Source: a candidate division FCPU426 bacterium (GTDB lineage: Bacteria > Oederibacteriota > Muellerivitia > Muellerivitales > Muellerivitaceae). Taken from it: a stretch of 64,000 bases of DNA. A program made the translations under genes and the position numbers. This document shows, one piece after another, positions 7,525-21,198 of the stretch (positions are counted from its first letter, which is position 1; every line of letters begins with the position of its first letter). The stretch lies in assembly GCA_963738405.1 (NCBI GenBank), contig CAVTWJ010000016.1:33507-97506 (forward strand), given 5' to 3'. The notes below the pieces were generated by a model, which worked only from the letters and a program-made list of their open reading frames with translations, ran no database searches and was not told where the DNA came from.

Positions 7525-7677
7525 TTATTTATTAGTTTTATGAGGATACAAAGGGGGCTCGTTCTGGATGATCTCCCCAGTTAATCGGTAGAGGTCGTCA
7601 CCTGCTTCGAGACCACAAGTCGAGGAGCACGTCTTGGTTGCACCAATGTCCGAGAAAGACATTGGTGTATTGGTCAT
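7525..7677 (-). pseudogene. Rhs stub: start of a third cassette, truncated
   Basis: MTNTPMSFSDIGATKTCSSTCGLEAGDDLYRLTGEIIQNEPPLYPHKTNK*; nearly the same as the N-terminus of ORF 8726-10231, then diverges. Confidence 0.75.
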
Positions 7678-7950
7678 TTAATCGGAATGGATTTTGAGAG
7701 GGTGTTTAACTGGGTATTCAGGTCGGCCACCTGGGCATCGGTGAGGGTTTTGGAGTTGTTCGCTTTGAGGTCGGCTGATTCCTGTTTGCGGATCGCGTCC
7801 ACCTGGGTTTTGAGGGTCTTGGCCTGGGCTTTGGTCAGTTTCCCAGCCTTAACTTCCCTCTGAATTTGGATGTTCTGCTGGCGAAGGCGAACCGTCAGGC
7901 GGTTCATGGGAGTATTGGGGAGGACTTTGGGTGCGGTGGGGGTGGGCATG
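7559..7950. repeat. ~390-bp direct repeat, copy A
   Basis: Matches 10113-10503; covers the mature part of the 112-aa gene, the hairpin junction and the first Rhs codons. Confidence 0.92.
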
Positions 7951-8012
7951 GTTGTGGCAAAGGCCACACTTTGAGTCAGGACCAATGCAAAAACGAATGA
8001 TGAGTATTTCAT
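7674..8012 (-). CDS. Small secreted helical protein, paralog A
   Basis: 112 aa with signal peptide; mature part nearly identical to 10228-10566. Confidence 0.85.
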   Translation of the reverse strand: MKYSSFVFALVLTQSVAFATTMPTPTAPKVLPNTPMNRLTVRLRQQNIQIQREVKAGKLTKAQAKTLKTQVDAIRKQESADLKANNSKTLTDAQVADLNTQLNTLSKSIPIK

Positions 8013-8171
8013 AATTCCTTCTTTATCTCAAAATTTAGTATTAGCACAGTTCTCTATTACTTACTCAATTTCTTCAACCGGGAGGCTTAATGACCTCGAC
8101 GGAATTTTTGCACCATAAGGCGAAGCCATACTTAAAAAAACAAAAAACAACATTTCAGCTTTAGTAGATTT

Positions 8172-8714
8172 CTATCTTTCATGGCCATCCGTTTTAAACG
8201 CCTTTTCCATTGATGAGGCAAATTTATTGAGATTTTCGTTTTTGTTTGCAGAACACTTTTTGATTATTCCCATCATTTTTTTAAGTTCACTATCGTCGAT
8301 TTCTTGAACTATTTTGTAATTGTCAATTATCAACAAGACCTGATAATTGGCCTCTGATTGCATTTTTTCAGTGCTTAAAAACAATGATTTAATTTTTAAA
8401 GACATCCCCTTTAAAAGAGAGTCACTGACAATGAATTGATTCGGATTCATCGACGTATCTTTTATCAAATAATTCAATTCACTAACGCTTAGTTCTTTTT
8501 CTGTAATCGTAATTAAAGGTTGCATCAAATCAGAACTGCCAATGAAATAAATAAATATTCCATTTGTGCAATTGGAATATTTATCAATACCGACACCCCC
8601 CAAAGGGCCGCTCGCAATCGAACTGTGTGTTTTTACAAGGTTATTATCTGCAAACAACTTTATAGAAAATATCCCCATCAAAAAAAGTAATAAAACAAAA
8701 ATTATATTTTTCAC
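8172..8714 (-). CDS. Putative secreted immunity/partner protein of Rhs tip 2
   Basis: 180 aa, AT-rich, signal peptide ending LFA, starts 11 nt after the Rhs-CT stop. Confidence 0.6.
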   Translation of the reverse strand: MKNIIFVLLLFLMGIFSIKLFADNNLVKTHSSIASGPLGGVGIDKYSNCTNGIFIYFIGSSDLMQPLITITEKELSVSELNYLIKDTSMNPNQFIVSDSLLKGMSLKIKSLFLSTEKMQSEANYQVLLIIDNYKIVQEIDDSELKKMMGIIKKCSANKNENLNKFASSMEKAFKTDGHER

Positions 8715-8725
8715 TCTTCCCTCGT

Positions 8726-10231
8726 TTAGTAGAGGTAATTAAATACAACGGGATCAGCAGTTACGTTATATATTGATCCTTCTTTAGTAACTTTCCAACC
8801 CCAATCAATTTCTCCAAGGTAACTATTAAAGCTAGTCGTATTCCAATTATCTAACCCAACAAGATAAGCTTGAGCTTCCCAGTGACAACTTCCTCCATTA
8901 TTATCAATATCCTTTCTCGGTCTCTGTGATTGGTCAGTAAAACGGGCATTCCCCTTATCTGTTTGTTGTAATGCTTTCTCTATAGTGGTTGGATAAAGCA
9001 AAGGCCATGGCGAACCTTGTGGAAATCCATTTGCAATTGCTTGCGGACTATTCGGAATAAATCCATCAAAGTACCAATCATCTTTCGGTTGCCTGGATGT
9101 TAAGGGTATATCTGTTTTTACCCTTTGCACCCATCTATAAACATTAAATTTCGGTATTCTATTTACAGTTAAGGCATGCGCATTAAGTAAAAAACCACAA
9201 CTATGGCCATCGTTGTCTACTTCGCTTATTGGTAAAAATTCGAACCTAATTGTTCCTGCCAAATCATGAGCCAAAGCCGACCAAAATACATGTGGCTCAC
9301 TGCTAATTCCGCCATCATCATTCCCACTTGGGTCAAACCTGTTCTCGGGATTATTAGAAGCAAATTCGTATTTGTGGAGTGTTAGCGGGTCTTCCGTTTC
9401 CCCCTCATAACTATCCATCGTCTCAAATCTTCCGATGCCTGGATTCATCCATCTCGCTCTCAGATTGTAAAAACCTGTATTCGGATCGAGCTGTTCCCCA
9501 TCGAATTGACAAACATTCTGGGTTGATCCAGTCGAAGAAATAGAATTCCCAAACGCATCCAGGGTGTAGGTATCTCCCGTAACTTGGCCGGCTGAATTCA
9601 TCAGGTAACGAACTGATCCCTGTCCGTCATATCCGTAGTAAGAAAGGGTGAAGGTGCCAGGGACAAAGGAGCCGTTAGAAATTGCCTCTTGGTCTTCCGC
9701 TATTCGGCTTATCCCATAGGTGTAAGTCCTTCCCACTGCCCCGCCTTGGAGTTCATCCATCACTTGGGCGTAGCCGGTAAGGTTGGTGGAGCTGATTAAG
9801 TAGTTGGTGGTCACGCTATTGACCGTCTGGGAAACCTTGTTACCATCCCCGTCATAGATGAAAGATTCATTCAAGCCTGAGCCCGTCACGGTTAAAAGGC
9901 GGTCTAGGGAATCATAGGTATAGGTCTTGGCCGTGGGGTCGGTGAGGGTGTTTCCATCGCTGTCGTAGGTGTAACCCGCCGTCAGGCGGTCGTTTAGGTC
10001 ATATTGGCCCGTGAAGGTCTGGCCGGGAATCTGTGACAGGTCGGAGGTCCTTTGGTTGCGGTTGCCTACGGGATCGTAGGTATAGCCAATAGCCCCATTT
10101 ATGCTCACCGGGTCGTTTTGGATGATCTCCCCAGTTAACCGGTAGAGGTCGTCACCTGCTTCGAGACCACAAGTCGAGGAGCACGTCTTGGTTGCACCAA
10201 TGCCTGAAATGGGCATTGGTGCGTAGATCAT
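8726..10231 (-). CDS. Partial Rhs/YD-repeat protein with Rhs-associated core and C-terminal tip
   Basis: YTYDPVGNR, YTYDSDGN, YTYDSLDRL repeats; core FDGEQLDPNTGFYNLRARWMNPGIGRFETMD...NNPENRFDPSG; 5' part of a full Rhs is missing. Confidence 0.92.
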   Translation of the reverse strand: MIYAPMPISGIGATKTCSSTCGLEAGDDLYRLTGEIIQNDPVSINGAIGYTYDPVGNRNQRTSDLSQIPGQTFTGQYDLNDRLTAGYTYDSDGNTLTDPTAKTYTYDSLDRLLTVTGSGLNESFIYDGDGNKVSQTVNSVTTNYLISSTNLTGYAQVMDELQGGAVGRTYTYGISRIAEDQEAISNGSFVPGTFTLSYYGYDGQGSVRYLMNSAGQVTGDTYTLDAFGNSISSTGSTQNVCQFDGEQLDPNTGFYNLRARWMNPGIGRFETMDSYEGETEDPLTLHKYEFASNNPENRFDPSGNDDGGISSEPHVFWSALAHDLAGTIRFEFLPISEVDNDGHSCGFLLNAHALTVNRIPKFNVYRWVQRVKTDIPLTSRQPKDDWYFDGFIPNSPQAIANGFPQGSPWPLLYPTTIEKALQQTDKGNARFTDQSQRPRKDIDNNGGSCHWEAQAYLVGLDNWNTTSFNSYLGEIDWGWKVTKEGSIYNVTADPVVFNYLY

Positions 10232-10503
10232 CTAATCGGTATCGACTTGGAGAGGGTGTTTAACTGCGCATTCAGGTCGGCTACCTGGGCGTCGGTGAGG
10301 GTTTTGGTTCCGTTGGCTTTGAGGTCGGCTGATTCCTGCTTGCGGATCGCGTCCACCTGGGTTTTGAGGGTTTTGGCTTGGGCCTTGGTCAGTTTGCCCG
10401 CCTTCACTTCCCTCTGGATTTGAATGTTCTGCTGACGAAGCCGGATCGTCAGGCGGTTCATAGGGGTATGCGGAAGAACTTTGGGGGCGGTGGGCGTTGG
10501 CAT
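10113..10503. repeat. ~390-bp direct repeat, copy B
   Basis: Matches 7559-7950, offset about 2554 bp. Confidence 0.92.
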
Positions 10504-10566
10504 TCCCGCGCTAAAAACGGTTGTTTGAACCACAATAAAAAAAAGAATAAAAATTAATAATTTCAT
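10228..10566 (-). CDS. Small secreted helical protein, paralog B
   Basis: 112 aa; MPTPTAPKVLP...RLRQQNIQIQREVKAGKLTKAQAKTLKTQVDAIRKQESADLKAN shared with paralog A. Confidence 0.85.
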   Translation of the reverse strand: MKLLIFILFFIVVQTTVFSAGMPTPTAPKVLPHTPMNRLTIRLRQQNIQIQREVKAGKLTKAQAKTLKTQVDAIRKQESADLKANGTKTLTDAQVADLNAQLNTLSKSIPIR

Positions 10567-10613
10567 CTTTGGTAGTCCCTTTAAACCTCTTTAATCGAAA
10601 TAGCCAACACACC

Positions 10614-11264
10614 TTACATTCCAAAACGGCTTTCAAGATCAGAAATATGGTCATAAAGGTCTTTGTATTTTTCTTTAGAAATATTTTTTATACGGTCAAA
10701 AATCAATTTTGATTTTTTTAAACTCAAAACATTCATTTTATTGCATTCATCTGCATTCCCGCTTTCGACAACCACAACATTAAATTTTCCGGATGGCAGA
10801 TCCATGTTACTTGTTCGATTATTTTTTACGGGATATTTGAGTTCAATAGTACTGGTTACCGGTTTATTTACACTGCCGACATCAAAAACCGAAACGCCAA
10901 AGCTTTTCCCAATCTCAACTTCCGATTCTTTAGAAAAATAACCTTTGAATTCGTTCAATATTTTTAAAAAATCAACCTTGGTAACTACATATTGATTAAT
11001 CAAGTCATAAAAATTCAAATTATTTAGTTCGGTATTCAAGATTTTGAAACCATTCGTATTACCAAAAAAAAGTTTTATTTCTTTGGAATCCATCTTTTTC
11101 ATACTAATGATCATTGGAAATGTCGGGTGTGTTTCCGAGCCATAATATTCAACCCATATCGCATTAAACTTTTCATCGTTTTTATTTTGGGTTATCCCAG
11201 CAAAAAGTGATTTGAAAAGGAATAAACAGCAAAAAATTAATAAGAATATATTTATGGCCTTCAT
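10614..11264 (-). CDS. Putative secreted immunity/partner protein of Rhs tip 1
   Basis: 216 aa, AT-rich, signal peptide ending LFA, start overlaps the Rhs stop (TAATG). Confidence 0.6.
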   Translation of the reverse strand: MKAINIFLLIFCCLFLFKSLFAGITQNKNDEKFNAIWVEYYGSETHPTFPMIISMKKMDSKEIKLFFGNTNGFKILNTELNNLNFYDLINQYVVTKVDFLKILNEFKGYFSKESEVEIGKSFGVSVFDVGSVNKPVTSTIELKYPVKNNRTSNMDLPSGKFNVVVVESGNADECNKMNVLSLKKSKLIFDRIKNISKEKYKDLYDHISDLESRFGM

Positions 11265-12143
11265 TAATAACCCCCTTGGTAATCAATCGTTATTGGCTCT
11301 GGTCTTAAATTCAGCGTGCGTCCATTTATAACATCAAAAGCAAAACCATAACGAAATGAAACCATTGGTTGAAAGTTAAGGTCGTTCAGAGAATCGGTAG
11401 CTACAAATGAAAGGTCCGCTTCAAATGTTGTGTGTTTCGTAGTTAATACAGCACGCGGCATATCGAAAAAGACTTCATCGTAAGATGGAAAAAGTTTTTG
11501 CGCATTGTTTGCCTCAGTGGCGTTTTGATAGTAATACGGTATTGAACTTTTTGGCGGTACATCCAAATGCCAACCAGAAGGTTCTCCAGGTATTGAATAA
11601 CTCGCATTTACATATTGAACCCAGTTATAAATCGGATTTTTAAATGTGACGTTTGGGTTTGATCGATTTTTTGTAAGCGCACCTAAAATAATTTGAAGCC
11701 CCGCTGTTTGTTCATGATGCAACTCAGAATCATTTGATATGTAAATGCCTTTATATACCAATTGATCAACTCGGATTGCCGAAAACTGAAGTGAATTAGG
11801 CCATAAAACTTTTGGTTCAGACGCAGTCAATGACATCATGTCATCATTCCCAGTTGGATCGATACGATCAACTGGATCATTAGAATCATAAACGTATTTG
11901 TGCAAGCTCAATGGGTTTTCTTGGGCACCTTCATTTGTGTCCATGCTCATGAACCGCCCCAGGCCTGGGTTCATCCACCGCGCCCTTAGATAAATTAGGC
12001 CTGTGTCGCTGTCGGCGTATTCACCGAATGCGCCCACGTTGTTGGCAGTTCCCGCGCCTGAACTGGAAATCAAATTCCCAAAGGCGTCCCAGGTATAGGC
12101 ATCGGTAATTTGCCCGCCATCATTCATCAAGAAGCGGACATTC
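11264..12143 (-). CDS. Orphan Rhs core fragment with C-terminal tip (5'-truncated)
   Basis: NVRFLMNDGGQITDAYTWDAFG...GLIYLRARWMNPGLGRFMSMD...DPVDRIDPTG; homology ends near 12143 with an in-frame stop just upstream. Confidence 0.88.
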
Positions 12144-12210
12144 TGTAAGAGAATTAGGGGTCAGGCCTACATTTTCCATTCACTCAACTTGATGGTTCGT
12201 GGTAAGTATA

Positions 12211-12271
12211 TTATTGGGTAGGTATGCAAATGCTCGTACAGGCATTTGCATCACCAAAACTCACCCAATAA
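12211..12271. other. Long imperfect hairpin between the ParB-like gene and the Rhs fragment
   Basis: Outer TTATTGGGT/ACCCAATAA; inner ATGCAAATGC-tcgtacag-GCATTTGCAT. Confidence 0.7.
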
Positions 12272-12278
12272 CTTGTTG

Positions 12279-14294
12279 TTATTGGACATGTATCTTTTCC
12301 ACCTTAGAAACCCGCGGCGGCGGGCCGGGGTACACCCCAAAGATAATCGCCACCGGCTGGGTGGCAACCACCTCTCCGGGGTAATGCAGATCGCTTTGAA
12401 CCGTCAAAGCGCCCTCCACCCGGAAATCATCCTCGAAATAGTCCGCCTTGACGCATTCGGCTGGTTTTGTTGCCTTGAAAAAGACGTTGAGCTTCTCGTC
12501 CTGAACCTTTTGCAGATAGGACGGGGGAAAAAAGTCGTAAAAGAACTTCTCAGAATAGTTTTCCCATACCTCGTTTTTGAGGTATCCCAGCCAGACGGGA
12601 GTGTCCCGGTAGGTCGCCCCGAAGAAATAACCGGCAAAATCCTGAACGAACATCTTTTCGGATGGAATCCGGCTTTGGTATTGAACAGGGATCGAAAGGG
12701 TTGGAGCCGCTTGGGCCGGAACCACAGGTGGAGGCCCTTGATTTGGCGCCGCCGCGCTTTTTCTGATCTTTTGATGTTGCCGTGGTTGTGCCGGCGCAAC
12801 CGCGGCGAGTATAGATGACGCGGCTGGTGTCAATATCGCCTTTGGCGACGGCGGAGAGCCAGACGTTTTGGCTTGCTCCCAGCCAGTGGCAGAGTCATAA
12901 ACCCTTTCGGCTTCCCCTTCCACCCATCCCACCACCCGGCCTGGGTGGCGCCAAGCCCAAAGGATTGCCCAAAGGACCAGGGCGGTGAAACCCAGCTGGA
13001 TCAGCCCGTTGACCCATTTCCCCTCGGCACAAAGGCGGATGCCCTTTTCCAGCATTCGATAGGGCCATTTCACTAACCATTCAATTGCCCCAATCAGCTT
13101 GTGCCACACCCATGCCAAAGACTTCCACCATAGGGATTTGGATGCCTTAGCTTTTGAGGCTGTTTTGCCCTTACCGCCTCCTTTGGACCCAGACTTTGGC
13201 TTGCCCTGAGTTTTAGCCGTGCCCAAGGCTGAGGAGGCTTTGGTAAGGTGACCGGCCACTGCCGTTAGGAACTTGTGCAACCCGCCCTGAGCGGGAATGG
13301 TGGTATGGGTCTTTTGTTTCTCATATTCCTCGGGCGGGGTACCCGCCAAGACCGCCTGTACCAGGGCCTTCACCTTGGCTTCGGTCATCTTGTGATCTAT
13401 GGCCACCTTTAGCGCCCGTAGAACCAGGTCTTGTGTTTCGGGGGGAATGGGCGGGTAGGGCCATAGTTTCTGGGGTGCCAGCTGGGCCGAGGCCTCAAGC
13501 CGAGGCCCGTGACTTGCTTGTCCCGGCTCAATGGGGGTATCAGGAGCCGGGATCACCATTTTCTTCTTCACCCCCGGCTTTAGACCCGTTCCGGGGCCCA
13601 AACCCGCCAATTGAAAGGCCGCTCGGTCCGAAAATTCCCACTTTTTGCGATTCGAATTGCTAGCGTTGCTAGCAATTGACGGCTTTAGGGTGGATGAATT
13701 GCTAGCAACGCTAGCAATTAAAGCCCTTGATTCAGGATTTAGGAGCGGTAACAAGCGTATGGCTCGATTTACTTTTACTTCATCTATCTTCCATTTGTCC
13801 GCAATCTGCCTCTGGGTAATGTCCGGGTTGGATTTAATCTTTAGTTCTATGTAAAGGTAATCCGCCCACCAGCCCCTTTTTCTGACTTTATTGTCCCAAT
13901 AGAGAAGATCGGCGGCTTCTTCGGGGGTCGGGTTGTGGATGAACCCGTCAATGGTCTCCCATTGAAGCAGTTCGGCGGCCCTGTCCCGCAGTTCCCCGCC
14001 GTAGATCAGGTAATTGAAATCCCCCAGCTCCCAAGGCTTGCCATCCGCCCTTAGCCGGGGGTCATCGGGATGAAGTTGGGCTCCCCCCGCCAGGGGGTTA
14101 GCCTTATCAGGCCCCACCTGGATGGGATTCTGGAGCCCCCTTTGGGCCATATCATCCGCCTGATCCTTAATTTCTTGTTCGGTGGGCTTACCGGGGTTGT
14201 CCGGGTTGCGGCGGAGATTCTTTCTGGGCAGGGGCTGTTTGCCTGGGAACATTTCCGGCAATAACGCCAAAACATCTTCGATGGTTACGGGCAT
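12279..14294 (-). CDS. ParB-like CTPase/HTH protein fused to a TM helix and a C-terminal extracytoplasmic domain
   Basis: GLQNPIQV, YLIYGGELRDRAA (ParB Arg patch), HTH ITQRQIADKWKIDEVKVNRAIRL, TM LIQLGFTALVLWAILWAW; ATG 14294 follows GGAGG (ORF track starts at 14399). Confidence 0.8.
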   Translation of the reverse strand: MPVTIEDVLALLPEMFPGKQPLPRKNLRRNPDNPGKPTEQEIKDQADDMAQRGLQNPIQVGPDKANPLAGGAQLHPDDPRLRADGKPWELGDFNYLIYGGELRDRAAELLQWETIDGFIHNPTPEEAADLLYWDNKVRKRGWWADYLYIELKIKSNPDITQRQIADKWKIDEVKVNRAIRLLPLLNPESRALIASVASNSSTLKPSIASNASNSNRKKWEFSDRAAFQLAGLGPGTGLKPGVKKKMVIPAPDTPIEPGQASHGPRLEASAQLAPQKLWPYPPIPPETQDLVLRALKVAIDHKMTEAKVKALVQAVLAGTPPEEYEKQKTHTTIPAQGGLHKFLTAVAGHLTKASSALGTAKTQGKPKSGSKGGGKGKTASKAKASKSLWWKSLAWVWHKLIGAIEWLVKWPYRMLEKGIRLCAEGKWVNGLIQLGFTALVLWAILWAWRHPGRVVGWVEGEAERVYDSATGWEQAKTSGSPPSPKAILTPAASSILAAVAPAQPRQHQKIRKSAAAPNQGPPPVVPAQAAPTLSIPVQYQSRIPSEKMFVQDFAGYFFGATYRDTPVWLGYLKNEVWENYSEKFFYDFFPPSYLQKVQDEKLNVFFKATKPAECVKADYFEDDFRVEGALTVQSDLHYPGEVVATQPVAIIFGVYPGPPPRVSKVEKIHVQ
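13655..13719. repeat. Two perfect 23-bp palindromes inside the ParB-like gene (candidate parS-like sites)
   Basis: AATTGCTAGC-gtt-GCTAGCAATT (13655-13677) and AATTGCTAGC-aac-GCTAGCAATT (13697-13719). Confidence 0.85.
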
Positions 14295-14499
14295 ACATAC
14301 CTCCGGCCTATAGGGTTGTACGGCTGATTTTGGATATTTAAATTGTGTAGAAATAATTTTCAAGAAAAAACGGGGGAAACACTTAAACAGTTTGGACAAT
14401 TATTGTGCGGTTTTTTGAAACAACCGCGCTTTATCCTTAGATAAATTCAAATTTGCGAATAAAAAGGGCTGTCGCTTTGGGACAAAGACCCTCAGAAAT

Positions 14500-14529
14500 A
14501 AAAAAAGCCGCCGGGGTTTCCGGCGGCTT
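14500..14529 (-). terminator. Intrinsic terminator
   Basis: AAGCCGCCGG-N5-CCGGCGGCTT followed by a T-tract on the minus strand. Confidence 0.85.
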
Positions 14530-14980: not shown

Positions 14981-16525
14981 TTAACCGGCCTTGTTCGATT
15001 TGGTTCGCTTGACCATCGCCTCTACCAGGGCCGGAAGGGTATGGGGTTTGGCCTCGACCGCCACTTTGCCCCCCCACTTCTTCACGGTATCGCCCGTGAT
15101 CGGCCCCACCACCGCAATTGAAACATCTTTCAGGACTTGTTTCCGTTGAACGGAAGTAAAGGCTCCGCAGAAATGATCCACCGTCGAGGAAGCGGCGAAC
15201 ACCAGCCAGTCCACCCCACCTCCCTTGAAAAACAAATTTTGAAGACTTTGTTTGGCTTGTTTCGGCACACGGGTTTCATAGAGGGACCAAAGGGTAACCT
15301 GGGCTTTTTGTTTTCTCAAGGCCTTCTCCAGTAAATCCCTTCCCTCCTTGGCCCTAGCGAAAAGAATCCGCTTCCCTTCCAGCTTCTGGCCTATCTTGCC
15401 GAAAGATTGAACCAGCCCTTCCTGTTTGTAGTCTTTAGGAACCAGGTCCGCCTTGAGTCCGTACTTTTTCAGCGCCATGGCCGTGACCTCGCCCACGCAG
15501 GCGATCTTGAGGCCGGAGAGGCTTCGCACATCCAATTTAGAAACCGTCAGGTGGGAAATTAAAATATCCACCGCATTAGCGCTGGAAAAGATAAACCAAT
15601 CGTAAGAGGAAAGGTTTTTGAGAATCTTTTTCCCCTCAGCTTTGAGGGGCAGGGCCGCGATTTCAATGGTAGGAATTTCAACCACTTCCCCGCCTTGGTC
15701 TTCCAACAATTGAGTGAGAAAACTGGCCTGCTCCCTGGATCGGGTTACGAGTATTTTCTGGCCCGAAAGGGCTTTATATTTCATCCAACTCAAGGGGTTC
15801 ATCAGTTCCACCACCTTTCCCATCACGACCGTGCAGGGAGCCCTTAAGCTCCTTTTTTTGACCCCATCAACGATATCAATTAGTTTTCCAACAACGGCCC
15901 GTTGGGATCCGGTGGTTCCCGATTGGATGACCGCTACCGGGGTCGAGGGGTCTTTGCCTTCGCCTATGAGCCTCTCACAGATTCCCGGCAAAGTATGCAG
16001 ACCCATAAGGAAAACCAGCGTACCTTCGGTTTGAGCCAAATGGGCCCAATCAATGCTCGTTTCAGCCTTGGCCGGGTCTTCATGGCCCGTCAGGATAGTC
16101 AGCATCGAATTAAAGGCCCGGTGGGTCACCGGAATGCCCGCATAGGCGGGAACGGCAATGGCGGAGGATATCCCCGGCACCACTTCAAAGGGGATTCCCT
16201 TTTCCACCAGGGCCAGGGCTTCTTCGGCTCCACGGCCAAACACAAAGGGGTCGCCGCCCTTGAGCCGGACGACGATTTTGCCCTGGAGGGCCTTACGCAC
16301 CAGAAGGTTGTTGATAGCTTTTTGGCTCAAGGCCCCCTTTTGGGAACGGTGCCCCCGGAATATTTTTTCGCAACTTGGGGGAATCAGGCTTAGGATTCTT
16401 TGGGGTATCAATGCGTCGTAAATGACCACATCCGCTTTGGCTAGAACCTCCACAGCCCGAAGGGTTAAGAGGCCCGGATCGCCCGGACCGGCCCCGACGA
16501 GATAAACCCTGCCCATGGGGTTCAT
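14981..16525 (-). CDS. cobA: Uroporphyrinogen-III C-methyltransferase / uroporphyrinogen-III synthase fusion (CobA/HemD)
   Basis: VYLVGAGPGDPGLLT, RLKGGDPFVFGRG; C-terminal HemD domain ILVTRSREQA, FSSANAV, VGPIT. Confidence 0.95.
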   Translation of the reverse strand: MNPMGRVYLVGAGPGDPGLLTLRAVEVLAKADVVIYDALIPQRILSLIPPSCEKIFRGHRSQKGALSQKAINNLLVRKALQGKIVVRLKGGDPFVFGRGAEEALALVEKGIPFEVVPGISSAIAVPAYAGIPVTHRAFNSMLTILTGHEDPAKAETSIDWAHLAQTEGTLVFLMGLHTLPGICERLIGEGKDPSTPVAVIQSGTTGSQRAVVGKLIDIVDGVKKRSLRAPCTVVMGKVVELMNPLSWMKYKALSGQKILVTRSREQASFLTQLLEDQGGEVVEIPTIEIAALPLKAEGKKILKNLSSYDWFIFSSANAVDILISHLTVSKLDVRSLSGLKIACVGEVTAMALKKYGLKADLVPKDYKQEGLVQSFGKIGQKLEGKRILFARAKEGRDLLEKALRKQKAQVTLWSLYETRVPKQAKQSLQNLFFKGGGVDWLVFAASSTVDHFCGAFTSVQRKQVLKDVSIAVVGPITGDTVKKWGGKVAVEAKPHTLPALVEAMVKRTKSNKAG

Positions 16526-17455
16526 TTAGACCCGTCCATAATGGTCAAGAATTTCCTGTCCGCCGTTCTCAATGAAAAACTGGGCGAGACGCTCGCCCAA
16601 GGCCAGGGGGTTATCTTTCAAATCCCTCATGCTGTCTTTAATGATAATTTCACCGGTGGAATCGGCCACGACCCCCGTGAGACGGAGTACTTCCCCTTCC
16701 AAAATAGCCAGGGCGCCCACCGGCACCCGGCAGCCGCCCTGCAGGGCCTTAAGGAAAGATCTTTCGGCCATGGCGCAGATGCGGGTGGCGGGGTCATTCA
16801 AGGGGCGAAGCTTTTCCAGCATGTCATGGTCGTGGGAAAGCGCCGTGATGACCAGGATGCCCTGGGCCGGGGCGGGAACCATGACTTCGGGGTCTAAAAA
16901 TTCGGTGATTTCCGCTTCCCTTCCCAATCGCTTCATGCCCGCGGCGGCCAAAAGGATGGCGTCCACCTCGCCCGCTTGAAGTTTTTTGATTCGAGAATCC
17001 ACGTTGCCGCGGATAGGCACCACCGTTAGATCGGGACGGGCGGCCTTCAGCTGGGCTTCCCGGCGGGGCGAGCTGGTGCCCACCTTGGAACCGGCGGGCA
17101 GTTGGGCCAGCAGATGGCCCTCCCTTGAAATGAGAGCATCCCTGGGATCTTCCCGGGCGATGAGTGCGGCATAGACGATGCCGTGGGGCAAGGTCGTGGG
17201 CACATCCTTGAGGCTGTGGATGGCGGCCCGGATGGTGCCGTTGAGGAGTGCGTCATCTAATTCCCTCGTGAAAAGGCCGGGAGGAATGCCCGTCAAATCG
17301 GTAGGCGCCGGTTGCACGCCCCAAGCGTCGCCCTGAGTTTTAACTACCCGCAATTCCAATGGTTCATTAGGCAAAAGCTTGGCCATTTCGTTTAGCACCA
17401 TGCCCGCTTGGGCTAGGGCCAGTTGGCTTCCGCGGGTGCCGATGATTAAAGGCAT
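16526..17455 (-). CDS. hemC: Hydroxymethylbilane synthase
   Basis: IGTRGSQLALAQ, HSLKDVPT, GTSSPRR, IRGNVDSR, GGCRVPVG. Confidence 0.97.
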   Translation of the reverse strand: MPLIIGTRGSQLALAQAGMVLNEMAKLLPNEPLELRVVKTQGDAWGVQPAPTDLTGIPPGLFTRELDDALLNGTIRAAIHSLKDVPTTLPHGIVYAALIAREDPRDALISREGHLLAQLPAGSKVGTSSPRREAQLKAARPDLTVVPIRGNVDSRIKKLQAGEVDAILLAAAGMKRLGREAEITEFLDPEVMVPAPAQGILVITALSHDHDMLEKLRPLNDPATRICAMAERSFLKALQGGCRVPVGALAILEGEVLRLTGVVADSTGEIIIKDSMRDLKDNPLALGERLAQFFIENGGQEILDHYGRV

Positions 17456-17482
17456 GGAACGCCTAAGGGGAGGCTGTTGAAT

Positions 17483-18757
17483 TTAAGCATCGGGATGTTC
17501 CTCAAAAAGGCTGAAGATTTCACTCAACATGCGGGCATACTCAAACCGGTCCGTTTCCTGGGTGATGGTTTTTAAATTGACCGAAGGTTCGTGTAGAAGC
17601 TTCCCCACCAGGTCATGGGTGAGCTTTTCCACCGCCCTGCGTTCTTTTTCGCCAAGGGACGGGTTCTTTTTGAAAAACTCGTCCAGTTCCCTCTTACGGG
17701 CCGTTTCGTATTTATTCCTCAACCTTACCACCGTAGGCACCAGTTCCAGGGTGTTGAGCCAGGAACAAAGTTTTTCCACTTCCTCTTTTAGAATCGCTTC
17801 GGCGTTTTGGGAGGCCTTTTGGCGCTCATCCCGGTTGCGGTTGGCCAATTGGGAAAGGTCGTCGATGTTATAGAGATAGAGGGAGTTGATTCCCGAGGCC
17901 GATTCCTCCACGTTGCGGGGTACCCCTGTATCAATGATGAAGAGGGGGTTGCCCTGCCTTTGTCTCATCGCCTCCTCCAACCTTTCGCGGGTCAGGAGGG
18001 GCTGCGGCCCGGCCACAGAAGTGAGGATAATATCGACCTGGGATAATTGGGAGAGGGCATCCTCCAAGGGCAGGGCCTTGCCGCCCAGGGAGGCGGCCAG
18101 GGTTTTCGCCTTTTCCAGTGTTCGGTTGGCCAGGCGGAAACCCCTGACCCCCGCGTCGAACAGGTATTTGGCGGTTAGCTCGCTCATTTCCCCGGCGCCG
18201 ATTAAGAGAACCTGCCTTTGGGCGAGCGGGCTGAAGATTTTCCCCGCCAAATCCACCGCCACCGAGGAAACATTGGTGGGCATGCGCGCGATTTCAGTTT
18301 GGGTGCGCACCCTTTTGGCGGCGGAAAAGGCCCGGTGGAAAATGCCGTTCAAGGTGGAACCGAGGGTGCCATTGGATGCCGCGGTTTCATAAGCTTCCTT
18401 GACCTGGCCTAAGATCTGGGCTTCCCCCAGCACCATCGAATCAAGCGAGCTGGCGACCCGAAATAAGTGCAGGAAGGCCTCGGGCCCCTCGTAATGGTAA
18501 AAGTACCGGGAAATTTCCTTGGGACGAAGCCGGTGGTGTTTGAACAAACTCCGGTGCACCGTTTCCAGGGCTTCTTTCTCCCGGTCGGTGGCGAAGTAAA
18601 ACTCCACCCGGTTGCAGGTGGAAAGAAAAACCGCCTGGGGAGCCGATTCTTTCAAACCTTGGAGTGTTTCCCCCACCTGCTCAGGGGTCAGGGCGTATTT
18701 TTCCCGGACCGATACGGGAGCGGTGCGGTGATTGAGCCCGTAGGCGATGAATTTCAT
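17483..18757 (-). CDS. hemA: Glutamyl-tRNA reductase
   Basis: GLNHRTAP, LSTCNRVEFY, SLDSMVLGEAQILGQVK, IGAGEM. Confidence 0.97.
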   Translation of the reverse strand: MKFIAYGLNHRTAPVSVREKYALTPEQVGETLQGLKESAPQAVFLSTCNRVEFYFATDREKEALETVHRSLFKHHRLRPKEISRYFYHYEGPEAFLHLFRVASSLDSMVLGEAQILGQVKEAYETAASNGTLGSTLNGIFHRAFSAAKRVRTQTEIARMPTNVSSVAVDLAGKIFSPLAQRQVLLIGAGEMSELTAKYLFDAGVRGFRLANRTLEKAKTLAASLGGKALPLEDALSQLSQVDIILTSVAGPQPLLTRERLEEAMRQRQGNPLFIIDTGVPRNVEESASGINSLYLYNIDDLSQLANRNRDERQKASQNAEAILKEEVEKLCSWLNTLELVPTVVRLRNKYETARKRELDEFFKKNPSLGEKERRAVEKLTHDLVGKLLHEPSVNLKTITQETDRFEYARMLSEIFSLFEEHPDA

Positions 18758-19728: not shown

Positions 19729-21198
19729 TTAAAAGATGCTGGAGGCGGCCGCTTCGGCGAGTTTCATGATGGGGGCTGGCCAAAAGCCCAAAACCACCGT
19801 CACGATGATGCATAGAAGGAGAACGGCCTTTTCGAGCACATTGACGGGAATGGGGGATGGGTCCGCTGCGTCCGAAACCAAAGCCGTCTTAGCCACCATG
19901 AGGTAATAGTAAAGAGACACCACGCTGAAAACCATGCCGACTAAGGCCAGCCAGGTATAGCCCTGGTGGATGGCAGCGCCGAAGAGGTACCACTTCCCCG
20001 AGAAGCCGGCAAAGGGCGGCACACCCGCCAGGGAAAGCAGGCCCACTAAAAGCATCACGCCGATAATCGGCGATCTTTTCCAAAGACCCGCGAAATCGGC
20101 GGTGTTCTCGCTTCCCGTCTTGGCGGAAACCAGGCTGATGGAAAGGAAAACCCCCATGTTGGCGAAGAGGTAAACAAAAAGGTAAAAGAGAACGGCCGTC
20201 AGGCCCAGTTGCCCCCCCGCCAGGAACCCGGTGGAAATGTAACCCGCTTGGGCGATGGAGGAATAGGCCATGAGGCGTTTCAAATTGGTTTGGGGCAGGG
20301 CTTCCAAGTTGCCGAGAACGATGCTGGCAGCCGCAAGAACCGCGAAGAGGCCGACCCAAACCGGTTGGAGCGAAGGCACCGCCAGCCCCACCCAAAAGAG
20401 CCGGACGAAGGCGGCAAACCCGGCCGTCTTGGAAGCCGTTGAAAGAAATGCCGTAATGGGCGTGGGGGCTCCCTCATAGACATCCGGCGTCCACATGTGG
20501 AAAGGCGCCAGGGAAATTTTGAAGGACAACCCAGCGATCACCAAAATCACGGCCAAGACCCCGAGGGGTGAAACCGGTTGGAGAGCCAAGGCCTTCGCGA
20601 TGCCCGCCAAGGTGGTGGTTCCGGCGAGTCCGTAGAGATAGGAAAATCCAAACAACAAAAGGGCGGATGAGAAGGCCCCAATGAGCAGATACTTCATTCC
20701 GGCTTCGTTGCTCTTGGTGTCCTTTTTCATGAAAGAGGCCAAAAGATAACTGCTGATGGTGAGGGTTTCCAGGGCGATATAAAGAGTCACCACTTCCTGG
20801 GCGGAAGACAAGGCGGAAGCGCCGGCGGCGGAAAAAAGCAGAATGGACAAAAATTCCGCCGGGTAGGGCGTGGGCTGGGCCTTGAAATGCCGGTGGGTGA
20901 TCACCAAAGTCAGCAGGGTCGCCAGCAACACCACCATTTTGAAAAAAACGGCAAGGGCATCCAATTTGAGGAAGCCGTTGAAGGTTTCACTCGGAAAAAG
21001 GCCGAGCGAGCAAGCCCCCGAGCAGCAGAGGCTGCCGAGGCAAGGGAGTGTGACCAGCGCCCCCAGGATGCCGAGTGCGGCCACCCAGCTCAATACAACG
21101 CGATCTGTTTCTTTTTTCATAACCAAATCGAAAAGAAGGATCAGCACCGCGGTGGATACCAGCCAAATTTCCGGAAGAAAAACGGAGTATTGGATCAC
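19729..21198 (-). CDS. nuoN: NADH-quinone oxidoreductase subunit N
   Basis: SNEAGMKY, FKISLAPFHMWTPDVYEGAPTP, KRLMAYSSIAQAGY. Confidence 0.95.
   Translation of the reverse strand: MIQYSVFLPEIWLVSTAVLILLFDLVMKKETDRVVLSWVAALGILGALVTLPCLGSLCCSGACSLGLFPSETFNGFLKLDALAVFFKMVVLLATLLTLVITHRHFKAQPTPYPAEFLSILLFSAAGASALSSAQEVVTLYIALETLTISSYLLASFMKKDTKSNEAGMKYLLIGAFSSALLLFGFSYLYGLAGTTTLAGIAKALALQPVSPLGVLAVILVIAGLSFKISLAPFHMWTPDVYEGAPTPITAFLSTASKTAGFAAFVRLFWVGLAVPSLQPVWVGLFAVLAAASIVLGNLEALPQTNLKRLMAYSSIAQAGYISTGFLAGGQLGLTAVLFYLFVYLFANMGVFLSISLVSAKTGSENTADFAGLWKRSPIIGVMLLVGLLSLAGVPPFAGFSGKWYLFGAAIHQGYTWLALVGMVFSVVSLYYYLMVAKTALVSDAADPSPIPVNVLEKAVLLLCIIVTVVLGFWPAPIMKLAEAAASSIF

Follow-up and report, generated by a model that had tools for sequence, protein, structure and literature searches.

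To our knowledge, all ParB-fold proteins studied so far are soluble, and the reversible amphipathic helix of Noc is the only membrane link known among them. Noc combines the ParB-CTPase fold with a helix-turn-helix (HTH), is an orphan without a ParA partner and brings DNA to the membrane; it is soluble, keeps the C-terminal dimerisation domain and attaches by an N-terminal amphipathic helix, reversibly and under control of cytidine triphosphate (CTP) (available text of PMC7333895 and PMC8429893). In canonical ParB, an N-domain (GERRxRA) and an HTH domain are followed by a C-terminal domain for dimerisation (available text of PMC7333895). Here we describe a ParB-like gene in a 64,000-nt stretch of DNA (the window) from contig CAVTWJ010000016.1 (C16; other contigs are named likewise) of a candidate division FCPU426 bacterium, whose draft genome (GCA_963738405.1), in 23 contigs, amounts to 3.18 Mb at 90.7% completeness. 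The product is a bitopic inner-membrane protein with a cytoplasmic ParB-type module, a predicted transmembrane (TM) helix and, on what is predicted to be the outer side, a VirB8/DotI-type NTF2 domain. Where canonical ParB has its dimerisation domain, this protein has a flexible linker, a Trp-rich segment, the TM helix, a Pro-rich linker and the NTF2 domain. Unlike in Noc, the membrane helix (residues 427–448) stands C-terminal of the module and is followed by an outside domain, while the N-terminus aligns straight to the ParB N-domain. With a TM helix in place of a reversible one, membrane attachment would be permanent. Judged by analogy, Noc is the nearest functional analogue.

Other described proteins share parts of this plan. 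KorB, VirB and BisD are likewise orphan ParB-fold DNA-binding proteins with roles other than segregation, but they are soluble and borne on plasmids or integrative and conjugative elements, whereas the window protein is chromosomal and membrane-spanning. VirB8, DotI, IcmL, TraM, TcpC and PrgL carry an NTF2-like fold behind one TM helix; the window protein differs from this class in sequence (4–14% identity, no Pfam VirB8 match) and has a DNA-binding region of 425 residues where the class has a short cytoplasmic tail. ToxR shares the succession of cytoplasmic N-terminal DNA-binding domain, single TM helix and periplasmic domain, but its DNA-binding domain is an OmpR-type winged helix and that of the window protein is ParB-type; as the winged helix is absent, the window protein is an analogue of ToxR and not a member of its class. 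ARC6/PARC6 of plastid division is alike in plan only, with no sequence relationship, and ARC6 binds FtsZ. Full-text literature searches returned no paper on a transmembrane ParB or on a fusion of ParB with a VirB8/NTF2 domain. A 2025 PNAS survey of ParB-fold domain fusions (PMC12704722, available text) was built on Pfam-A co-occurrence and would therefore miss a TM helix and an unnamed C-domain; the words 'transmembrane', 'NTF2', 'VirB8' and 'periplasm' are absent from its main text, as are 'transmembrane', 'VirB8', 'NTF2', 'PDZ' and 'TPR' from six supplementary files.

A ParB-type module, a membrane helix and an NTF2-type domain in one protein

The relationship to ParB is brought out by profiles. 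Compared with PDB sequences, a 13-sequence profile of the window protein's subfamily (A3) matched Spo0J (1vz0) at E 2.8e-14, Noc at 4.7e-11 to 3e-10, Caulobacter ParB (6t1f) at 4.5e-9 and Myxococcus ParB bound to CDP/CTPgS (the cytidine diphosphate and a CTP analogue) at about 1e-8. Alignment by hhalign with the canonical 288-aa ParB of the same genome (98.9% probability, E 2e-17) covers residues 1–252 of the latter, that is the N-domain, the HTH and the helices after it; there the alignment stops, and linker, TM helix and NTF2 domain follow where the canonical dimerisation domain would be. In the AlphaFold2 (AF2) model, residues 1–345 have a predicted local distance difference test score (pLDDT) of 78, with residues 1–200 high, and the top Foldseek matches of this N-module are Noc, ParB, KorB (8qa9, 8qa8), Spo0J and sulfiredoxin (Srx), Noc giving the best structural matches and, after Spo0J, being among the best in sequence. 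Relatives carry the domain more openly: PF02195 is precomputed on 26 of the 32 matches of a word-indexed search (one of the 32 being the window's own protein), ParB_N reaches E ≤0.001 in 29 of 37 TM-bearing relatives scanned, not all above the Pfam cut-off, and several paralogs in the same genome match it too. The window protein alone gives no Pfam match at E ≤0.1, a weak match to TIGR00180 below the cut-off (E 5.7e-4) and weak matches to Spo0J, Noc and ParB chains in the PDB (E 0.005–0.09).

Box II GxxR is kept, G100 and R103 being invariant in both subfamily alignments (A2 and A3), and D134-N135-K-V-R138 stands at the position of Box III, with D134 and N135 invariant in both alignments and R138 in A2; the Glu of canonical ENxxR is here Asp. 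With canonical ParB (Spo0J) the protein shares the N-domain, Box II included, and the HTH, which align along 252 of the 288 residues of the genome's own ParB; the aligned stretch includes the DNxxR that resembles Box III. It differs in having neither a parA neighbour nor a dimerisation domain, in the ParA-binding motif LG[KR]GL, which was not seen by eye, and in some 30 extra residues between Box I and Box II. By profile alignment and predicted structure, residues 1–325 are a divergent module of the ParB/Noc/KorB type, with the ParB-CTPase fold and an HTH. We claim no CTPase activity, since the nucleotide specificity of ParB-fold proteins is not reliably predicted by sequence or AlphaFold3 (available text of PMC12704722).

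A 21-residue insertion in this module (..EPGQASHGPRLEASAQ..) matches a short dispersed element with 11 copies in the genome, as counted by a peptide regular expression. Paralog C6_8844 has three of them in tandem within its periplasmic linker, others are found at unrelated sites (C2:117509, C12:79912, C22:43335), and homologs from other genomes (P0005, P0010, P0019, P0030) contain peptides of a similar kind. By eye, a GC-rich hairpin is possible in the insertion DNA, which resembles an in-frame insertion of an element like the repetitive extragenic palindrome (REP).

The membrane helix is placed by a Kyte-Doolittle mean of 1.71 at residues 427–445, the only stretch above 1.6, and by eye the hydrophobic run extends to 448; relatives have a hydrophobic helix at the equivalent position. 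Among 31 single-TM proteins with the C-domain (a set in which the window protein stands twice, as P0001 and P0002), the count of Lys and Arg is higher on the N-side of the helix than on the C-side in 23, lower in 1 and equal in 7, with means of 3.0 in the 15 residues before and 1.7 in those after. This bias, together with the DNA-binding N-module and the lack of a signal peptide, favours an N-in, C-out orientation. The amphipathic character of the Trp-rich segment is a judgement by eye.

The C-terminal domain was modelled from an alignment of 34 sequences (A1: the window protein, seven paralogs from its genome and 26 database relatives, 17–51% identity). AF2 predicted four helices packed on a curved five-stranded sheet (pLDDT 96.0, predicted TM-score (pTM) 0.88), for which the top Foldseek matches in the PDB are DotI (E 9e-5, TM-score 0.70–0.73), an IcmL-like protein (0.76), R64 TraM, Rickettsia VirB8 and CagV; ARC6/PARC6, TcpC, PrgL, TraH and Tim44 come next. 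Sequence comparison gave little: the domain of the window protein matches no Pfam family, VirB8 (PF04335) is found in none of the 34 members, DotI_IcmL (PF11393) in one at E 0.074, far below the cut-off, and the domain profile had no match below E 0.08 among PDB sequences. The likeness to VirB8 and DotI is one of modelled fold; membership by sequence or gene context is not borne out.

We consider it very improbable that the protein is a VirB8-type subunit of a type IV secretion system (T4SS) or conjugation apparatus that brings DNA to the channel, a link that a sequence-only reading of this stretch had suggested and for which our searches gave no support. The structural neighbours DotI, IcmL, VirB8, TraM, TcpC and PrgL would fit such a role, as would the faint DotI_IcmL match and the fact that VirB8 is likewise bitopic with its NTF2 domain outside. 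But VirB4 has no match in this 90.7%-complete genome; nor has the VirB8 family, a null that is weak evidence because the model was also silent in all 14 control genomes. The only VirD4-like match is weak (28.8 bits) and located elsewhere, and among 105 open reading frames (ORFs) near 12 paralogs there is no conjugation or T4SS gene, no ParA and no conserved partner. Eight chromosomal copies are spread among housekeeping genes, and tblastn against 72,556 plasmids and 50,697 phage records found no match.

On the architecture itself the sequence-only reading fared well. It had recognised a ParB N-domain (GLQNPIQV; GGELRDRAA) and an HTH with ParB-like following helices, now confirmed by the A3 profile, the alignment to the genome's own ParB and the fold matches to Noc, ParB and KorB. 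The single TM helix that it placed agrees with hydropathy, homologs and the charge bias, its NTF2 fold of the VirB8/TcpC kind is upheld by AF2 and Foldseek (DotI, VirB8, TcpC), and the Lys/Gly linker, Trp-rich segment and Pro/Ala linker had been read correctly. It had also noted the absence of parA: none of the five AAA_31 matches in the genome lies on C16, and the canonical ParA-ParB pair is separate, adjacent on contig C14. That it knew of no description of such a protein accords with the literature and with the terms of PMC12704722 given above.

Full-length relatives (P0004, P0005, P0008, P0024) came from the word-indexed search at 35–40% identity and 94–97% coverage, and 228 proteins at E ≤0.001 were retrieved when 1.84 billion representatives were searched exhaustively. 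We classified 173 collected proteins by phmmer and hydropathy, the counts being lower bounds for divergent domains (P0004, for instance, resembles a member by eye yet went uncalled). N-module, TM helix and C-domain stand together in 33, and another 33 have N-module and TM helix followed by something else; 13 have TM helix and C-domain with no N-module, 77 the N-module only, 10 the C-domain only, 5 a TM helix only, and 2 N-module and C-domain with no TM call. An artefact of assembly or gene calling, or a decaying pseudogene, that fuses unrelated ORFs is in our view extremely improbable. The genome is a draft in 23 contigs and the gene holds two repeat-like DNA insertions, but both are in frame and fall in predicted loops, the frame is single and uninterrupted, and the folds at both ends are confident. 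The full-length homologs and the recurrence of the three-part plan in 33 of 173 proteins likewise speak against a fusion from a lost stop or an assembly error, an origin against which the sequence-only reading had cautioned. The architecture is real, intact and recurrent, and apparently undescribed.

The family is multi-copy, modular and lineage-specific, and combines three kinds of N-module with two outside domains or a second ParB module. A second outside domain sits on the ParB and TM chassis of P0003, P0010, P0025 and paralog C5_30577 (of four members scanned, one matched PDZ_2 weakly, below threshold), P0098 and P0164 have TPR repeats as the outside part, and P0012, P0017 and P0030 have a second ParB-like module and no TM helix. 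The window's own genome holds eight ORFs with the C-domain and one short fragment, and ten ORFs similar to the N-module, canonical ParB included. ParB subtype 1 is represented by the window gene with its NTF2-type C-domain, by C23_146116 (71% identical over residues 1–531) with the second kind of outside domain and by C22_114980, a soluble tandem ParB. Subtype 2 (GGHRRRAA), homologous to subtype 1 over the whole module (99.5%, E 4e-22), has four copies with the NTF2-type C-domain, one with the second kind of outside domain and one soluble copy. Three further copies join a short helical N-terminal part without ParB N-domain to the NTF2-type C-domain. Against the subtype-1 profile, one of these (C14_125320) matched weakly, through a 38-residue helical motif that ends in G-x-x-P-x-E-[FY] (probability 20%, E 0.0011), residues 275–325 being the only segment on the N-side to score against it, weakly; on this motif alone we do not claim that the HTH-only paralog is a truncated ParB.

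Some details of the paralogs were noted in passing. The second outside domain of C23:146116-148545 (L016) and C5:30577-32877 (L020) is about 300 aa long and has a conserved YWE[ED]VRAIH. Each soluble two-module paralog (C22:114980-116650, L017; C14:60064-61683, L018), in which a second, ParB_N/HTH-like half accompanies the N-module, adjoins a toxin-antitoxin pair. The C-domain fragment at C14:238621-238746 (E 1.6e-8), in a 60-codon frame with a TAG within the match, is probably a decayed paralog.

In distribution the family is narrow. The C-domain profile at E ≤1e-5 found 14 of 99 species genomes of the phylum, all in the window's own taxonomic family (13 of 30 other family genomes, 0 of 68 elsewhere in the phylum), with up to 12 matches per genome; the subtype-1 N-module at E ≤1e-20 is present in 14 of 31 family genomes. 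A scan of GTDB species genomes with the A2 alignment gave, outside the family, only 3 loci in 2 metagenome-assembled genomes, and the same scan with the single window protein gave no relatives.

Palindromes in the gene and outside it

The coding sequence of the window gene contains two perfect 23-bp palindromes, 42 bp apart, of the form AATT-N6-N3-N6'-AATT with 10-nt arms. They encode I-ASVAS-N-S and I-ASNAS-N-S within a 14-codon tandem duplication, which is a 14-aa insertion compared with most homologs, and the residues concerned (201–219) form a low-confidence loop in the AF2 model. Together with the multi-copy, lineage-specific nature of the family, this embedded palindrome goes beyond the sequence-only reading. 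The genome has 99 AATT-N15-AATT frames; the inner 6-mers are perfectly complementary in 12 of them, where 0.02 would be expected, and with one mismatch allowed the number is 15. Five of these palindromes belong to the three subtype-1 genes; they occupy the same codons, have different arms and are all perfect. The inner arms are GCTAGC in both copies of the window gene, GCTCGT and GCTCGC in C23_146116 and GTTAGC in C22_114980.

The same is seen in other genomes. Of 16 distinct homologous genes, those matched by a peptide regular expression among 33 loci, 13 have perfect 10+10 pairing; allowing one mismatch brings the number to 15, allowing two brings it to all 16, and no two of the genes have their arms in common. 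Five residues separate the invariant Ile from Asn-Ser; by eye, they always let codon 1 pair with codon 5 and codon 2 with codon 4, and peptides as different as VWNPN, VRDAD, IPIRN and GDNVP are compatible with this pairing. The idea that these five residues read their own arms was set aside: they lie in the low-confidence loop, and each change of arm would have to preserve recognition.

The other palindromes of the genome lie outside ORFs of ≥100 codons, except for two doubtful ones, and several are clustered (Table 1). The clusters on C20 and at 161.8–162.3 kb of C2 stand between convergent genes and not at promoters. Interleaved with the extragenic clusters are another inverted repeat, CGCGTCCAATTAA..TTAATTGGnCGnGAG, and a AAATAAGGGAATTTGGGG box that is conserved. 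In extragenic copies a common flank, CCCTTATTTG, precedes AATT, and its other strand corresponds to the conserved N-S-N-K-G codons of the gene. Searched as CCCTTATTTGAATT-N15-AATT with at most one mismatch, the flanked element gave 68 matches in 13 of 31 family genomes, and a reversed control 0 or 1 per genome. Of 45 distinct flanked copies in 30 stored loci, 7 lie within ParB-like ORFs and 38 outside; their inner arms are perfect in 33, have one mismatch in 11 and two in 1. Several arrays keep an exact 63-bp spacing in non-coding gaps, and one four-unit array occupies a gap without any ORF of ≥80 codons. Across the 31 family genomes, 11 have both the subtype-1 gene and the flanked element, 3 the gene only, 2 the element only and 15 neither; extragenic copies, read from coordinates, occur in 12 genomes, 10 of them with the gene. 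Rfam had no family for five array loci, with one sub-threshold match only.

When translated, array units give a degenerate version of the stretch of the gene on either side of the palindrome; the arrays probably arose from that stretch. Palindromes that keep perfect pairing in non-coding arrays, with arms that vary, mean that the DNA or RNA itself is being acted upon, whether by selection for self-complementarity or by a process that generates it.

Alternatively, the palindromes may act as single-strand hairpins or cruciforms, like integron attC or REP, in a hairpin-repeat or mobile-DNA system whose elements the ParB-fold protein would process, protect or propagate, the gene itself spreading selfishly. 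Fixed outer bases with free but perfectly paired arms are the signature of an element read by structure; the element is tandemly duplicated, at 42 bp in the gene and in 63-bp arrays, other hairpin-repeat blocks come after paralogs, and N- and C-modules are shuffled among paralogs. The Pfam scan of the 105 neighbouring ORFs showed housekeeping genes mixed with many toxin-antitoxin genes (PIN four times, MazF/RHH, Gp49/HTH, TacA, AbiEii-like and zeta); paralogs lie in variable regions rich in such genes, and ParB-fold proteins are often tied to mobile elements (available text of PMC12704722). We nevertheless find this account quite unlikely. No recombinase or transposase is conserved near the paralogs, there are no plasmid or phage relatives and no Rfam family, and PADLOC at E ≤0.01 was silent for 9 of the 10 paralogs scanned, the window protein included, with three weak matches on a soluble paralog. 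The account would also leave the membrane anchor and the outside domain without a role. A link to RAYT/Y1 transposases was rejected, because the three such genes lie on C19 and C12, contigs without AATT palindromes. The gene on C19 (IS200/RAYT-like; C19:21603-21932, L014 3516-4493) is about 3.5 kb from paralog C19_25491, and the other two are on C12.

A separate hairpin, CCAATAAC..GTTATTGG, lies over the stop codon of the window gene (within 12200-12288) and is followed by a conserved unit GTGAGTyTTGG..CAAATGCC-N6-GGCATTTG. Such blocks of alternating hairpins, about 67 bp per unit and up to 6 units long, also come after C-domain paralogs on C6, C5, C23 and C19.

A proposed membrane tether for DNA and other candidate roles

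We tentatively propose, giving it not quite an even chance, that the protein is a membrane tether for DNA that carries the 23-bp palindromic elements, its candidate sites. The cytoplasmic module would bind AATT-N15-AATT elements in its own gene and in the arrays, which are putative sites, and as the protein is integral to the membrane, the bound loci would be held at the envelope. It might thus be a permanently anchored functional analogue of the CTP-switched membrane recruitment of Noc. The outside VirB8-like domain may supply the oligomerisation lost with the ParB C-domain, contact an envelope partner, or both; we propose oligomerisation because VirB8-class domains form dimers, trimers and rings, including the arches and rings of T4SS, as the titles of PDB entries state. 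Proteins of the ParB family bind palindromes: B. subtilis parS is located within spo0J, and sopC of F consists of arrayed repeats, each with a SopB-bound inverted repeat.

Several observations weigh against this proposal. As a single sequence the window protein stays below Pfam's ParB_N threshold, N-P-G stands in place of canonical Q-P-R and the first Arg of GERR is Leu, residues with roles of their own in the ParB N-domain, and the TM helix is called from hydropathy alone. Three paralogs keep TM helix and C-domain without the ParB N-domain. The palindrome is limited to subtype-1 genes; at that position it is missing from all five subtype-2 and all three HTH-only membrane paralogs. No site has the same inner arms as another, yet the proteins are well conserved in their HTH region, which makes sequence-specific reading of the arms by one protein unlikely; recognition would then have to use the conserved outer bases and the flank, or a hairpin or cruciform, which is unusual for ParB. 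As the extragenic flank equals the NSNKG(IWG) codons, the arrays could be debris of a duplication-prone gene segment and not selected sites. There is also some circularity in the co-occurrence counts, as the element is part of the gene, and the genomes are kin.

A bolder version of the tether, which we hold to be unlikely, would make these proteins integral-membrane ParB-type switches driven by nucleoside triphosphates (NTPs), loading at the in-gene palindrome and the arrays and coupling the loci to a periplasmic VirB8-like oligomer, with the arms read as DNA shape. We know of no ParB protein that recognises shape, whether cruciform or hairpin.

The main rival to the tether, conceivable if doubtful, is that the protein is a transmembrane one-component regulator like ToxR or CadC. 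The outside domain would sense a ligand or the state of the envelope, and the tethered ParB/KorB-type module would repress or activate genes nearby, among them its own by way of the in-gene palindrome. The ToxR-type plan of an N-terminal DNA-binding domain, a single TM helix and a variable outside domain is matched by one ParB and TM chassis with interchangeable outside domains (NTF2; the second one, weakly PDZ_2; TPR). There are many paralogs per genome, as in sensor families, and the chassis is kept in paralogs without ParB N-domain. KorB, VirB and BisD are ParB-fold transcription regulators (available text of PMC12704722). However, no conserved target operon was seen beside the 12 paralogs, two of the arrays examined are between convergent genes and not at promoters, and the nearest structural class, VirB8/DotI, consists of scaffolds and not of ligand sensors.

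Setting of the gene and significance of the family

The longest open frame (12279..14399, reverse strand) has 706 codons from a TTG and is uninterrupted; the ATG at 14294 gives the 671-residue protein (P0001). We accept this ATG as the start because GGAGG lies 5 nt upstream and the N-termini of close homologs begin MPV[TS]IE[DE]VL. The terminator-like hairpin of the upstream gene implies that the ParB-like gene is its own transcription unit. The coordinates of all features are collected in Table 1.

Table 1. Features of the ParB-like gene (window positions) and extragenic palindromes of the same genome (contig positions)
Feature	Position	Strand	Remarks
Whole gene	12279..14294	-	671 codons + stop (12279-12281)
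Ribosome-binding site GGAGG	14300..14304	-	5 nt before ATG; read from sequence
Terminator-like hairpin + T-run of upstream gene	14505..14529	-	10 pairs, 8 GC, T-tail
ParB N-terminal (ParB-CTPase-fold) domain	13890..14294	-	residues 1-135; profile, hhalign, AF2/Foldseek
GLQNPIQV motif within N-domain	14115-14138	-	
Box II G-G-E-L-R-D-R-A-A within N-domain	13974-14000	-	
HTH DNA-binding domain	13590..13889	-	residues 136-235; about 150-235 align to HTH + helices after in Noc, Spo0J and the genome's own ParB
Palindrome 1, AATTGCTAGC-GTT-GCTAGCAATT	13655..13677	.	perfect 23 bp, in coding sequence; inverted-repeat scan
Palindrome 2, AATTGCTAGC-AAC-GCTAGCAATT	13697..13719	.	perfect 23 bp; 42 bp from first
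In-frame insertion	13473..13535	-	residues 254-274; missing from most homologs; low-pLDDT region
Conserved helical segment, LWPYPPIPPETQ ... G-x-x-P-E-E-Y	13320..13472	-	residues 275-325; end of ParB-like module
Low-complexity Gly/Lys/Ser/Ala linker	13137..13319	-	residues 326-386; unaligned, variable among homologs
Trp-rich, Lys-containing segment just before TM helix	13017..13136	-	residues 387-426; kept in closest homologs
Predicted TM helix	12951..13016	-	residues 427-448; hydropathy, homolog position, positive-inside count
Pro/Ala/Ser-rich linker, predicted extracytoplasmic	12687..12950	-	residues 449-536; variable among homologs
VirB8/DotI-like NTF2-fold domain	12282..12686	-	residues 537-671; AF2, Foldseek
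Hairpin over stop codon	12262..12288	-	first unit of hairpin-repeat block
Extragenic cluster	C20:50522-50712		three palindromes, 84-bp spacing
Extragenic cluster	C2:161815-162269 (161.8-162.3 kb)		three palindromes
Extragenic cluster	C2:22529-22625 (22.5 kb)		two palindromes
Extragenic singles	C2:198140; C1:41707		

Directly downstream lies an island of low GC content (7674-12130, reverse strand; 0.40 against 0.51–0.57 around it). Two of its ORFs, 8726-10231 and 11264-12130, have YD-repeat and DPxGN-type motifs and by eye resemble orphan RHS toxin C-terminal cassettes; a small ORF with a signal peptide comes after each, and the RHS-like ORFs have no Pfam match at E ≤0.1. The island also holds two almost identical 112-aa ORFs (7674-8012 and 10228-10566). 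On the other side of the gene, at 14981-18757 (reverse strand), there are by eye genes of tetrapyrrole synthesis (fused uroporphyrinogen methyltransferase/synthase-like, hemC-like and hemA-like ORFs), and after them a NuoN-like membrane ORF at 19729-21198. As the tetrapyrrole and NuoN-like ORFs are core genes, the ParB-like gene sits at the border between the core genome and the low-GC island.

Confined to a single family of a small, uncultured phylum (99 species genomes), these proteins may be of narrow general reach. Among their genes, a 23-bp element remains self-complementary in a coding loop across many genomes while its arms change, a clean case of covariation that points to a function at the level of DNA or RNA overlapping the gene. 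The in-gene palindrome is a concrete candidate binding site, and the tether idea can therefore be tested directly. If the reading as an NTP switch were true, these proteins would form a trans-envelope centromere or tether that reports the position of the chromosome or fixes it to the envelope. A ParB module held permanently at the membrane, with a domain of the secretion-system type outside, would, if true, be a new connection between DNA and the cell envelope.

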